IMG/VR virus record: IMGVR_UViG_2698536681_000012
Source of the DNA: a virus
Taxonomy: Duplodnaviria; Heunggongvirae; Uroviricota; Caudoviricetes
Direction: 5' to 3' (one strand)
Length of the DNA stretch: 5,799 nt
Position 1 is the first letter of the stretch, and every line of letters begins with the position of its first letter. Shown here in pieces: positions 1,388 through 4,954 of this stretch. Under the pieces are notes generated by a model that saw only the letters and a program-made list of their open reading frames with translations, searched no databases and was not told the origin of the DNA. A program made the translations under genes and the position numbers.

Positions 1388-1411
1388 GTTCTCATCTCCC
1401 TTTTCTTTATG

Positions 1412-1427
1412 CTGTATGTTTATACAG
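1412..1427 (-). promoter_or_regulatory. LexA operator (SOS box), canonical 16-bp CTGT-N8-ACAG
   Basis: Plus strand CTGTATGTTTATACAG is a perfect match to the CTGT-N8-ACAG architecture with an AT-rich core. It lies between the -10 element and the RBS of the minus-strand small gene, the classic arrangement for umuDC-type operons. Confidence 0.8.
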
Positions 1428-1428
1428 T

Positions 1429-1458
1429 ATTCTAATAACTGAATCCGCACACAGTCAA
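1429..1458 (-). promoter_or_regulatory. sigma70-type promoter for the minus-strand SOS operon (-35 TTGACT, 18-nt spacer, -10 TAGAAT)
   Basis: Reverse complement of 1453-1458 is TTGACT and of 1429-1434 is TAGAAT, with an 18-nt spacer. The LexA box abuts the -10 element. Confidence 0.6.
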
Positions 1459-1796
1459 ATGTCATNNNNNNNNNNNNNNNNNNNNNNNNNNNNNNNNNNN
1501 NNNNNNNNNNNNNNNNNNNNNNNNNNNNNNNNNNNNNNNNNNNNNNNNNNNNNNNNNNNNNNNNNNNNNNNNNNNNNNNNNNNNNNNNNNNNNNNNNNNN
1601 NNNNNNNNNNNNNNNNNNNNNNNNNNNNNNNNNNNNNNNNNNNNNNNNNNNNNNNNNNNNNNNNNNNNNNNNNNNNNNNNNNNNNNNNNNNNNNNNNNNN
1701 NNNNNNNNNNNNNNNNNNNNNNNNNNNNNNNNNNNNNNNNNNNNNNNNNNNNNNNNNNNNNNNNNNNNNNNNNNNNNNNNNNNNNNNNTTCTTTTG

Positions 1797-1814
1797 CTGT
1801 ATATATATATACAG
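1797..1814 (-). promoter_or_regulatory. LexA-box-like palindrome with non-canonical spacing, CTGT-(AT)5-ACAG, 18 bp
   Basis: CTGTATATATATATACAG has the conserved CTGT/ACAG half-sites but 10 nt between them instead of 8. It is followed by the same -10 and -35 hexamers (plus 1816-1821 and 1840-1845) as the first copy. Function is uncertain because LexA binding is spacing sensitive. Confidence 0.4.
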
Positions 1815-1852
1815 TATTCTAATAACTGAATCCGCACACAGTCAAATGTCAT
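1797..1852. repeat. Direct repeat copy 2 (LexA-like box plus promoter module), about 385-387 nt from copy 1
   Basis: Identical 38-mer plus a box variant; see copy 1. Confidence 0.85.
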
Positions 1853-1899: not shown

Positions 1900-2140
1900 C
1901 TGCTGTGGAGTGCTGTGTCCAGCTTATCCACAGCATTTTGTGCACGGTTCTGTGGACAAAATACCTGGTTACCCAGGCCGTGCCGGCACGTTAACCGGGC
2001 TGCATCCGATGCAAGTGTGTCGCTGTCGCCGGCCTCCTCACCCGGTCACGTTTCGTCGTTCCTCCTCCACGCGCTGCGGCTTCGGGGCCGCACCTGCATT
2101 CGTATGCGGTCGCCCGGTAACAGGTGCGGCACGGCCTGAT
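1900..2140 (+). promoter_or_regulatory. GC-rich region with nested inverted repeats (long imperfect hairpin) upstream of the plus-strand operon; candidate single-strand promoter (Frpo/ssi-like) or other structured leader
   Basis: 1974-1985 CAGGCCGTGCCG is the exact reverse complement of 2127-2138 CGGCACGGCCTG. The flanks pair imperfectly (GTTAACCGGG near 1990-1999 against CCCGGTAAC near 2112-2120; TGCATCCGATGCA near 2001-2013 against GCATTCGTATGC near 2095-2106). Local hairpins are at 1903-1933 (CTGTGGA/TCCACAG), 1964-1977 (CCTGG-TTAC-CCAGG), 1979-1990 (palindrome CGTGCCGGCACG) and 2076-2091. The region has no convincing ORF with an RBS and ends at the RBS of the gene starting at 2169. Confidence 0.4.
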
Positions 2141-2168
2141 GGAGGCCGCATGTGAGAGGAGAATTCCC

Positions 2169-2622
2169 ATGCCAAACTGGTGCTCGAATCGTATGTATTT
2201 TTCTGGTGAACCGGCACAGATCGCTGAGATTAAACGACTGGCCAGCGGTGCAGTTACACCGCTTTATCGCCGCGCCACAAATGAAGGTATTCAGCTGTTT
2301 CTGGCCGGAAGTGCCGGACTTCTGCAGATCACTGAAAATATCCGCTCTGAGCAGTGCCCCGGAGTGACGGCTGCCGGACGTGGTGCTGTATCACCGGAAA
2401 ATATCGCGTTCACCCGCTGGCTGACACACCTGCAGAACGGTGTACTGCTGGATGAGCAAAACTGCCTGATGCTGCATGAACTCTGGCTGCAGAGCGGTAC
2501 TGGACAGCGTCGCTGGGAAGAGTTACCGGATGATGTCAGGGAAACTATCACTGTGCATTTCACCGCAAAAAGAGGTGACTGGTGTGGCTTCTGGAGTAAC
2601 GAGGATGTATCGGTGTGGTGGA
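2169..2622 (+). CDS. Hypothetical protein, paralogue A (N-terminal 151 codons visible; continues into N-run)
   Basis: ATG at 2169 with a strong RBS GAGAGGAG (2154-2161, 7-nt spacing). Open frame with enterobacterial-like codon usage, translating MPNWCSNRMYFSGEPAQIAEIKRLASGAVTPLYRRATNEGIQLFLAGSAGLLQITENIRSEQCPG... I do not recognise the family. Confidence 0.8.
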
Positions 2623-3055: not shown

Positions 3056-3178
3056 TGGCCAGTGGTGCCGTCACACCGTTTTATCGCCGCGCCACAAATG
3101 AAGGTATTCAGCTGTTTCTGGCCGGAAGTGCCGGACTTCTGCAGACCACTGAAGATGTGTGGTTTGAACCGTGCCCCG
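3056..3178 (+). CDS. Hypothetical protein, paralogue B (internal fragment homologous to paralogue A residues ~25-64); both ends in N-runs
   Basis: 3080-3145 is 66 nt identical to 2263-2328, with about 85% identity over about 110 nt. In-frame translation ASGAVTPFYRRATNEGIQLFLAGSAGLLQTTEDVWFEPCP parallels paralogue A. The copy offset of 817 nt places a start near 2986, inside the N-run. Confidence 0.65.
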
Positions 3179-3745: not shown

Positions 3746-4954
3746 ATGACGGAGACGGGCGGGCAACCGCNNNNNNNNNNNNNNNNNNNNNNNNNNNNNN
3801 NNNNNNNNNNNNNNNNNNNNNNNNNNNNNNNNNNNNNNNNNNNNNNNNNNNNNNNNNNNNNNNNNNNNNNNNNNNNNNNNNNNNNNNNNNNNNNNNNNNN
3901 NNNNNNNNNNNNNNNNNNNNNNNNNNNNNNNNNNNNNNNNNNNNNNNNNNNNNNNNNNNNNNNNNNNNNNNNNNNNNNNNNNNNNNNNNNNNNNNNNNNN
4001 NNNNNNNNNNNNNNNNNNNNNNNNNNNNNNNNNNNNNNNNNNNNNNNNNNNNNNNNNNNNNNNNNNNNNNNNNGTCGGCCTGACCCGTTACCGGACGCGG
4101 TGAACAGCCCACAGGCAGCGGGGAACGGGCACCACAGGGGTGCCCTCCCGNNNNNNNNNNNNNNNNNNNNNNNNNNNNNNNNNNNNNNNNNNNNNNNNNN
4201 NNNNNNNNNNNNNNNNNNNNNNNNNNNNNNNNNNNNNNNNNNNNNNNNNNNNNNNNNNNNNNNNNNNNNNNNNNNNNNNNNNNNNNNNNNNNNNNNNNNN
4301 NNNNNNNNNNNNNNNNNNNNNNNNNNNNNNNNNNNNNNNNNNNNNNNNNNNNNNNNNNNNNNNNNNNNNNNNNNNNNNNNNNNNNNNNNNNNNNNNNNNN
4401 NNNNNNNNNNNNNNNNNNNNNNNNNNNNNNNNNNNNNNNNNNNNNNNNNNNNNNNNNNNNNNNNNNNNNNNNNNNNNNNNNNNNNNNNNNNNNNNNNNNN
4501 NNNNNNNNNNNNNNNNNNNTGGAAAAATGCGGGATTCAGCGTTGTTGGTCACCTGGTCTTCACCAAAAACTACACATCGAAGGCCGCATATGTGGGCTAT
4601 CGCCACGAATGCGCCTACATCCTGGCAAAAGGCCGTCCACGTCTGCCACAAAACCCGCTGCCGGACGTGCTGGGCTGGAAATATTCGGGCAATCGCCATC
4701 ACCCGACGGAAAAGCCCGTTACCAGCCTGCAACCGCTGATTGAGAACTTCACACACCCGAACGCAATTGTGCTGGACCCGTTTGCAGGCAGCGGCTCAAC
4801 CTGCGTCGCCGCCCTCCAGTCCGGACGCCGGTATATCGGTATCGAGCTGCTTGAGCAGTATCACCGTGCCGGGCAGCAACGCCTTGCCGCCGTGCAACGG
4901 GCCATGCAGCAGGGGGCCGCGAATGATGACTGGTTTATGCCGGAGGCTGCGTAA
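3746..4954 (+). CDS. DNA methyltransferase, beta-class N6-adenine/N4-cytosine type (PF01555-like); C-terminal catalytic region visible, N-terminal extent uncertain
   Basis: The visible C-terminal 144 codons (4520-4951) contain HPTEKP followed about 20 residues later by DPFAGSGST (the FxGxG AdoMet-binding motif), then RRYIGIE, an arrangement typical of beta-class amino-MTases such as CcrM. ATG at 3746 gives a 402-codon frame if the N-runs are length-faithful; the visible island 4074-4150 is open only in this frame. Alternatively the MTase starts inside the N-run 4151-4519 and 3746 begins a separate short gene. Confidence 0.8.
   Translation: MTETGGQPXXXXXXXXXXXXXXXXXXXXXXXXXXXXXXXXXXXXXXXXXXXXXXXXXXXXXXXXXXXXXXXXXXXXXXXXXXXXXXXXXXXXXXXXXXXXXXXXXXXXXXRPDPLPDAVNSPQAAGNGHHRGALPXXXXXXXXXXXXXXXXXXXXXXXXXXXXXXXXXXXXXXXXXXXXXXXXXXXXXXXXXXXXXXXXXXXXXXXXXXXXXXXXXXXXXXXXXXXXXXXXXXXXXXXXXXXXXXXXXXXXXXXXXXXWKNAGFSVVGHLVFTKNYTSKAAYVGYRHECAYILAKGRPRLPQNPLPDVLGWKYSGNRHHPTEKPVTSLQPLIENFTHPNAIVLDPFAGSGSTCVAALQSGRRYIGIELLEQYHRAGQQRLAAVQRAMQQGAANDDWFMPEAA

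Follow-up and report, generated by a model that had tools for sequence, protein, structure and literature searches.

The question raised by this locus is whether the non-coding interval between two divergent gene sets, at the outer end of an IncI1-type plasmid leading region (IncI1/IncF), works as a promoter while the DNA is still single-stranded. The window, by which we mean the whole 5,799-nucleotide stretch analysed here (IMG/VR virus record IMGVR_UViG_2698536681_000012), carries on its minus strand impB, impA(umuD) and impC with a LexA-box promoter. On the plus strand, from the ATG at 2169, it has a DUF1281 gene, further genes and an N6_N4 DNA methylase of the M.EcoGIX type that ends at 4954 (N6_N4_Mtase, E 5.1e-26 for 4520-4954). 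Its closest public match is pHUSEC41-1 (98.6%). The interval of interest (1900-2168, 269 nt) is widespread. It occurs in more than 4,400 PLSDB plasmid records, and among 5,426 complete E. coli genomes 3,046 have it, nearly always on a plasmid. An initial annotation had described it as non-coding, as ending at the ribosome binding site (RBS) of the first operon gene and as a candidate single-strand promoter of the Frpo/ssi kind. The first two points are borne out by the public annotations of near-identical plasmids, in which the interval is intergenic, and by the AGGAG at 2157-2161 in front of the DUF1281 start codon.

The direction of transfer can be deduced from related plasmids. In pESBL-EA11 and F the operon has the same orientation as klcA, ssb, psiB and ardA and is read towards oriT (in pESBL it is located ca. 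17 kb from nikA/oriT), from which it follows that the minus strand of the window is the strand transferred by conjugation and the template of the operon. The ssi sequences, taken in transferred-strand orientation, map to the same strand as the element described below. By synteny, the interval is thus in the leading region, upstream of genes templated by the transferred strand.

The most conspicuous trait of the interval is a long-range hairpin. The 12 nt at 1974-1985 (CAGGCCGTGCCG) are the exact reverse complement of 2127-2138 (CGGCACGGCCTG), with the arms 141 nt apart, as the initial annotation had noticed, and only one in 300 dinucleotide shuffles of 1860-2170 contained a perfect inverted repeat of at least 12 nt. 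The flanking imperfect complementarity that had also been described extends the arms to 27 nt (1974-2000 and 2112-2138, 78% complementarity). The nested structures were found as well, namely the 12-bp palindrome CGTGCCGGCACG at 1979-1990, an inverted repeat at 2087-2096/2121-2130 (10/10) and two small hairpins to the left of the main one (9/9 and 10/11 matched positions, see Table 1). Folded as single-stranded DNA, the fragment 1860-2170 reached -74.4 kcal/mol on the plus strand (z -6.5) and -71.4 kcal/mol on the minus strand (z -5.0), values that no shuffle equalled. A narrower interval (the equivalent of 1937-2192 in pHUSEC41-1) gave a z of only about -2.8 to -3.5, and in a 200-nt sliding fold scan of the pHUSEC41-1 leading region the class 1 ssi sites stood far above the hairpin, which was absent among the outliers. 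Stability alone is therefore insufficient for finding this hairpin. Taking the shuffles, the lower z in the narrow interval and the low rank in the scan together, we conclude that the structure at 1974-2138 is real, with only moderate stability. A terminator-like hairpin on the minus strand (1978-1963) was discarded, as one such site is about what chance would give (0.5 expected).

Further evidence comes from diverged relatives. One genome per species was scanned with a 16-base degenerate pattern of the 3' arm, followed by a profile search, and 45 copies were found in 26 loci from Escherichia, Salmonella, Klebsiella, Yersinia pestis, Erwinia, Pantoea, Mixta, Atlantibacter, Acerihabitans, Dryocola, Intestinirhabdus and Apirhabdus. 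The pattern has many chance matches in GC-rich genomes, none of which was picked up by the profile. In the window, the family HMM matches the minus strand at 2136-1975 (E 1.5e-21), and this is the sole copy in the unmasked sequence. Where a locus contains several copies they are always on one strand, and the called start codons lie 23-38 nt from the end of the element, with an RBS in between and the gene on the opposite strand. The genes directly behind the copies code for N6_N4 methylases, KlcA/ArdB, ArdA and DUF1281 proteins.

For the alignment we used 33 non-redundant copies from Enterobacterales, 49-65% identical to the one in the window. RNAalifold found in them five nested stems with 31 pairs (30 of them kept by the window copy), and 34 alignment columns are invariant. 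Paired cells amount to 95.2%, compared with 86.7% in column shuffles (0/500 reach the observed value), and pairs with compensatory double changes number 15 against 7.5 in the shuffles, while sliding the 3' partners by 1-3 columns leaves only 33-46% of the cells paired. The compensatory changes are distributed over stem 1 (columns 6-16 with 243-253, three pairs), stem 2 (27-31/226-230, GC to CG in 5 copies plus AU/UA variants) and stem 3 (45-54 with 205-216, at 45/216, 46/215 and 53/206). The 3' arm of stem 1 (columns 244-251) is invariant or nearly so across the 33 copies. Part of the conservation, i.e., that of the 3' arm of stem 2, of TAnnnT and of CACGGC, was imposed by the retrieval pattern and the extraction rule; the 9 copies found by the HMM only also keep all three. 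The innermost part of the hairpin is variable, and the version in the window is the shortest of the family.

Several copies per leading region and a presence in many thousands of plasmids would also be expected from a neutral dispersed repeat, small and mobile or spread by recombination, whose palindromic shape has no function. Such a repeat, however, would not be held together by compensatory changes at the identities given above, nor would it keep a fixed position and orientation relative to the downstream start codon, together with conserved TTG, TAnnnT and CA motifs (see below), and we consider this explanation extremely unlikely.

The same alignment indicates which strand folds. Among mismatched cells there are 32 G.T against 5 A.C, and in 33/33 copies the template strand is the more stable one (mean difference -7.8 kcal/mol). 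Since the copies are related, they do not amount to 33 separate trials, although the sign of the difference is the same throughout. The window copy itself shows a small difference of 2.1 kcal/mol (-49.4 vs. -47.3). One G.T wobble, at columns 50/212 opposite the first T of the -35-like hexamer, is found in 22 of the 33 copies and would become a C.A mismatch if the other strand folded. RNA made from the operon, which has the coding-strand sequence, is unable to use these wobbles, and the fold therefore belongs to the template strand. This is relevant for a second alternative, that the structure acts in duplex DNA or in RNA, as an operator or cruciform recognised by a regulator or as a 5' UTR leader under an ordinary promoter. 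The plus strand does fold well too, with the z given above, and the LexA-regulated impC promoter is only ca. 130 nt away. Nevertheless, a simple sigma-70 scan of the plus strand between 1789 and 2260 gave zero promoters, the only one detected being that of impC on the minus strand. Neither did a scan of the whole window with the Rfam covariance models (E <= 1) give any match. RNA structure cannot explain wobbles that fit only the template strand, which is the better folding one throughout, and there are family copies without impC nearby. All this makes an action in duplex DNA or RNA highly improbable.

What the template strand exposes when it folds is a set of promoter-like signals. TTG is present in 31-33 of the 33 copies and was used neither for retrieval nor for extraction, TAnnnT is found in 33/33 (including the 9 that the pattern did not retrieve), and the spacer between the hexamers is 15 nt in 32 of 33. 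Both hexamers belong to the 3' arm and are directed outwards from the hairpin, to the gene. In the window, TTGCAT and TAACGT match the consensus at 3/6 positions each, which is weak by duplex standards, and sigma-70 promoters do not typically have a spacer of 15 nt. In the family as a whole the -35 is mostly double-stranded, with a mean probability of being unpaired of 0.18, and about half of the -10 falls in an internal loop (0.48). In the window copy most of the -10 is paired (0.13), each arm having small bulges. Six bases past the -10 there is an invariant CA inside GGCACGGC, corresponding to C1982/A1981 in the window, and A1981 pairs with T2131 on the 5' arm. The 5' arm being the template, the RNA is predicted to begin with an A at plus-strand position 2131, or near it, and to run through a 38-nt leader to the ATG at 2169. 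The covarying fold, its specificity for the template strand and the hexamers pointing to the exit support the single-strand promoter reading independently of the published work. The parts of the element are listed in Table 1.

Table 1. Coordinates in the window of the hairpin element, its putative promoter signals and the adjoining features.
Feature	Positions	Strand	Remarks
Core hairpin, very probably the class 3 (ssp3) ssDNA promoter	1974..2138	-	Folds on the template/transferred strand
Stem 1, 5' arm on transferred strand	2127..2138	-	Pairs 12/12 with 1974-1985
Stem 1, 3' arm (non-template)	1974..1985	-	Conserved GGCACGGC, invariant CA at predicted -1/+1
-10-like hexamer TAACGT	1988..1993	- (5'->3' from 1993 to 1988)	TAnnnT in 33/33 copies
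Stem 2, 3' arm GCCCG	1996..2000	-	Pairs with 2112-2116
Stem 2, 5' arm CGGGC	2112..2116	-	Alignment and fold map
-35-like hexamer TTGCAT	2009..2014	- (2014 to 2009)	Inside stem 3, 15 nt upstream of the -10
Stem 3, 5' arm	2091..2098	-	Pairs with 2010-2017, making the -35 double-stranded
Hairpin inner part	2030..2090	-	Stems 4 and 5 and variable apical region
Stem 4	2030-2032/2088-2090	-	Family alignment
Stem 5	2040-2044/2077-2081	-	Family alignment
Predicted transcription start (A)	2131..2131	+	7 nt past the -10, read across to the paired template base
Predicted 5' UTR, 38 nt	2131..2168	+	RBS AGGAG 2157-2161
First operon gene, DUF1281	2169..2621	+	ATG at 2169; Pfam DUF1281 E 3.4e-29
Two small hairpins with head-to-head DnaA boxes	1901..1962	.	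1901-1909/1927-1935 and 1935-1945/1952-1962

Starting from the observed fold, its conservation and strand specificity, the conserved hexamers and the identity of the locus with a published one (see below), the following sequence of events can be proposed. During conjugation the minus strand of the window would enter the recipient as single-stranded DNA, and its bases 2138-1974 would fold back into the multi-stem hairpin, in which the 3' arm supplies the non-template TTGCAT-N15-TAACGT and the 5' arm the template, the stretch 2127-2138 serving for the first transcribed bases. The -35 would then lie within the duplex of stem 3 and the -10 in the imperfect, bulged stretch between stems 2 and 1. 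The sigma-70 RNA polymerase of the host may bind this pseudo-duplex, start near A2131 inside stem 1 and leave the hairpin at its base, reading the transferred strand through DUF1281 and the M.EcoGIX-type methylase to the genes behind them. Synthesis of the complementary strand would iron out the hairpin, and expression of the operon should stop, since in duplex DNA the same hexamers face impC and have a poor 15-bp spacer. That the polymerase uses precisely these hexamers and this start base, and that second-strand synthesis is the off switch, we infer from the model.

Part of this scheme has been described before. According to Wen et al. (NAR 2025, PMC12672017), donors were removed after mating and the RNA of pESBL transconjugants was sequenced, six operons were strongly induced early, hairpins were mined in the six upstream intergenic regions, and all six starts were mapped by 5' RACE and matched the hairpin predictions. 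One of the promoters, called class 3, is located before the pESBL M.EcoGIX operon; classes 2 and 3 are conserved in F, and the authors treat these two classes as unrelated. A later preprint (10.64898/2026.01.09.698686) names the elements ssp1, ssp2 and ssp3. There, ssp3 serves as a functioning ssDNA promoter with which the transcription of genes downstream was restored, its strength being similar to that of ssp2 and the replication-roadblock effect of the latter being absent. Earlier, a Frpo-type promoter upstream of the methylase gene had already been assumed (Fomenkov et al., 2020).

The element in the window is 99.4% identical over 173 nt to pESBL-EA11 (13273-13445 of sequence L003) and 93.9% identical over 734 nt to F, and the operon order DUF1281-hyp-methylase is seen in both plasmids. 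In pESBL the family HMM finds sites at 17101-17331 (before klcA), 24048-24278 (before ardA) and 13278-13439 (before DUF1281-hyp-methylase), which together with three class 1 sites reproduces, as 3 + 2 + 1, the scheme of Wen et al. (PMC12672017). Another place considered for the class 3 hairpin, the 77-bp gap immediately in front of the methylase gene, was rejected, as it has no structure beyond that of shuffles (z -0.02). The tally, the identities and the unstructured gap indicate that the window element is very probably the class 3 (ssp3) ssDNA promoter of IncI1/IncF leading regions, an equation based on our own mapping of the sites rather than on printed coordinates and made with high, though not complete, confidence. 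The window shares with class 3 the locus and position before the DUF1281-hyp-M.EcoGIX operon, a methylase and anti-defence operon, and a large predicted stem-loop in which the transferred strand rebuilds -35 and -10 boxes, as indicated here by the fold, TTG-N15-TAnnnT and covariation. Nothing substantive differs beyond a few base changes; the plasmid of the window has in addition a duplicated impC promoter region upstream and two tandem DUF1281 genes downstream. The promoter element itself was thus already published (2024-2025) and is known biology. The early expression of the operon postulated in the initial annotation finds support in the early induction reported for the 99.4% identical pESBL element (PMC12672017), with the provision that this induction in transconjugants and the mapped pESBL start come from the papers and not from the sequence of the window.

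Next to the promoter there is a feature that has no counterpart in the flanks of the other family members. Four DnaA box matches (with one mismatch at most) are found in the whole window vs. 0.46 expected, and two of them, TTATCCACA at 1924-1932 (plus strand) and TTGTCCACA at 1951-1959 (minus strand), are arranged head-to-head, one in each of the two small hairpins. F and pHUSEC41-1 retain the two of them. In pESBL the second is replaced by TTATTCACA, a sequence that agrees with the consensus but weakens the hairpin. The A site of the ABC primosome is a hairpin on ssDNA whose stem holds a complete DnaA box in double-stranded form (PMC6127211), and one could imagine a composite module in which 1901-1962, immediately 3' of the promoter on the transferred strand, recruits DnaA and couples early transcription to strand conversion at the outer edge of the leading region. 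On single-stranded DNA, DnaA bound there would prime complementary-strand synthesis in the manner of the ABC primosome, and in the duplex it would gate both ssp3 and the divergent impC promoter. We think this unlikely, given that only about 6-7 of the 9 positions of the boxes are paired in the local hairpins and that one of the hairpins is unconserved in pESBL.

The adjoining DnaA boxes also bear on another possibility, that the hairpin is mainly a single-strand initiation signal and its transcript only a primer. There are precedents: Frpo was first found as a priming signal, and ssp1 transcripts prime conversion in vivo (10.64898/2026.01.09.698686). Against such a role as the main one, every family copy examined abuts an RBS and a start codon at the short distance given above, with the hexamers facing the gene, mRNA induction and mapped starts have been reported for the class 3 operon (PMC12672017), and ssp3 restored transcription of the genes downstream (10.64898/2026.01.09.698686). 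We therefore regard priming as a very unlikely main function, and retain the promoter as the preferred one. Priming and promoter roles are compatible with each other.

The initial annotation had also noted a repeat with a period of roughly 385 nt and had taken it as a sign that the masked segment 1466-1788 might hold a second hairpin. The repeat exists, with a period of 389 nt, but what is duplicated is the impC promoter/LexA-box region (1400-1465 and 1789-1852). A canonical 16-nt LexA box is found in the first copy, and an 18-nt palindrome, CTGTATATATATATACAG, in the second. In plasmids with the variant of copy 2, a dinI-like remnant adjoins it, and such a remnant most likely fills the masked segment as well, as far as can be judged by sequence comparison. 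Among the best matches that were inspected (pHUSEC41-1, pTB-nb2 and pFORC44_1, with one copy each) there was no plasmid with both copies. The masked bases themselves are unreadable, and a second hairpin among them is unlikely.

The interest of single-strand promoters is that, in the first seconds after entry and while the plasmid is not yet double-stranded, they turn on genes for anti-restriction, a methylase and SOS inhibition, and this early expression is a large part of how resistance plasmids get past host defences. The switch described here is carried by thousands of sequenced plasmids of E. coli, Salmonella, Shigella and Klebsiella. To the published picture we add only the covariation at the level of the family, the strand test and the DnaA boxes. 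The covariation includes the observation that classes 2 and 3 share one covarying architecture in at least 12 genera of Enterobacterales, a modest addition. The signature TTG-N15-TAnnnT-N6-CA could be used for annotating such promoters and for designing mutants.

It remains to place the element among the known hairpin promoters. Frpo of F and ssi1-3 of ColIb-P9 are hairpin promoters active only in ssDNA, and they make up class 1 (Masai & Arai 1997; Bates et al. 1999; Nasim et al. 2004, cited after later work). Like them, the window element is a leading-region hairpin on the transferred strand that appears to mimic a duplex promoter for the RNA polymerase of the host, is directed at genes for which that strand is the template and would be silenced by second-strand synthesis. 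Yet when we carried out the alignment that the initial annotation had proposed, blastn (word 7, E <= 0.01) with F Frpo/ssiD, ssiE and ColIb-P9 ssi1-3 gave no match in the window, and neither did the class 1 HMM (E <= 10), while the same class 1 queries match 3 sites in pESBL and 2 in F. Class 1 elements are longer (ca. 330 nt) and much more stable (z -7 to -10, compared with about -3 to -5), and their A/T-rich GCAAAAnTTTTTG core is absent here. Membership in the Frpo/ssi sequence family, the repeat of ca. 330 nt, was accordingly rejected, and the element is better seen as an analogue of class 1. The Frpo/ssi-like promoter of the annotation hence holds for the function, to which the published locus, the covariation, the strand and the hexamers all point, and fails for the sequence family.

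The situation is different for class 2 (ssp2), found before klcA/ardB and ardA. With it the window element shares the blocks GCCGTG.., CCGGGCG, GCAGGGGCG, AAGCCGCA, CGGGTGA, CTTGCAT, GCCCGGnTAnnnT and GGCACGGC, as well as stems 1-5, the 15-nt spacer and the fold on the template strand. Class 2 copies are of ca. 236 nt (173 nt in the window), due to an extra inner arm of ca. 60 nt. Neither this long inner arm nor the position before klcA or ardA is found in the window, where the gene downstream is DUF1281, and the synthesis of the complementary strand is stalled by ssp2 but reportedly not by ssp3 (10.64898/2026.01.09.698686). The direct similarity of the window to pESBL class 2 is low (blastn 74% over 73 nt, E 4e-4; nhmmer E 8.4), but intermediate copies, reached with E values down to 7e-5 from the window alone, link the two classes. 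One HMM, one alignment with its 34 invariant columns and one covarying structure accommodate both, and by sequence the class 2 promoters of pESBL and F (klcA, ardA) belong to the family of the window element, the 3' arm in this link being biased by the retrieval pattern.

Samuel et al. (Nature 2024, PMC11541004) listed the five known sequences and thirteen computational candidates. Three of the latter, Frpo'4, Frpo*1 and Frpo*3 (Supplementary file 4 of PMC11541004), align with the minus strand of the window over the whole core; they are computational candidates only, from an insect-gut metagenome, and two of them are of low certainty. Their identity to the window is 54-57%, and in an alignment of all four sequences 77 columns are invariant. 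Near-identical copies of these candidates are present in Apirhabdus and Ca. Erwinia dacicola.

A more distant likeness is found in the early-gene promoters of phage N4, in which a DNA hairpin, assisted by SSB, is also the promoter. In N4 the hairpins are short, are extruded from supercoiled duplex DNA and are read by a phage-encoded polymerase, whereas the window element would be read by the sigma-70 holoenzyme of the host on transferred single-stranded DNA.

The promoter hairpin of the class 3 element (ssp3), on the minus (transferred) strand ahead of the DUF1281-methylase operon, is adjoined by two small hairpins, each holding a DnaA box, and the two boxes are oriented head-to-head (coordinates of all features are collected in the table). 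F and pHUSEC41-1 have both boxes as well, and so does pESBL, where box 2 reads TTATTCACA and retains its fit to the consensus. A terminator-like hairpin was also found, starting 3 nt past the position at which the promoter hexamers, in duplex form, would start leftward transcription.

Features beside the promoter hairpin, in the downstream operon and in related promoters
Feature	Sequence	Coordinates	Strand	Remarks
DnaA box 1	window	1924-1932	+	TTATCCACA, perfect match
DnaA box 2	window	1951-1959	-	TTGTCCACA, 1 mismatch
Terminator-like hairpin	window	1963-1978	minus	GCCTGGGTAACCAGGT then ATTTTGT; one such site is about the chance expectation
impC promoter copy 1	window	1400-1465		canonical LexA box CTGTATGTTTATACAG
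impC promoter copy 2	window	1789-1852		18-nt palindrome CTGTATATATATATACAG
DUF1281 N-terminal repeat	window	2241-2330, 3056-3145		ca. 90% identity
Published class 2 promoters (before klcA and ardA)	pESBL (L003)	17101-17331, 24048-24278		
Published class 2 promoter	F (L005)	7485-7715		
Class 2 copies	pHUSEC41-1 (L004)	4655-4885, 11605-11835		20-nt spacer
Family copy	Candidatus Pantoea communis (L085)	6603-6887		3' arm gone

The impC promoter region is present twice as a direct repeat with a period of 389 nt, the stretch that separates the copies being masked in the window, and near-identical public plasmids carry one copy only. In copy 2 the CTGT and ACAG halves lie 2 bases further apart, so that LexA control there may differ from that of copy 1.

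Downstream, the window has two DUF1281 paralogues in tandem, with their N-terminal coding stretch repeated; at the same place only one DUF1281 gene is found in each of pESBL, pHUSEC41-1 and F. Further along, one mechanical ORF of 402 aa (3746-4954) crosses masked DNA into the methylase domain and could encode a fused or longer methylase. In pESBL the counterpart of this stretch is divided between a hypothetical gene of 103 aa and a methylase of 227 aa, separated by a gap of 77 bp.

The family copy from Candidatus Pantoea communis, in which the 5' arm and the inner part are intact while the 3' arm is missing together with the -35 and -10 hexamers, looks like a decayed promoter. The class 2 (ssp2) copies of pHUSEC41-1 are a natural spacer variant, with 20 nt instead of 15 between TTGCAT and the -10 (TACGAT) and a 5' arm altered to match. 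Class 2 and class 3 promoters were regarded as unrelated (Wen et al., NAR 2025, PMC12672017); however, the class 2 promoters of pESBL and F have a core sequence and stems in common with the class 3 element.
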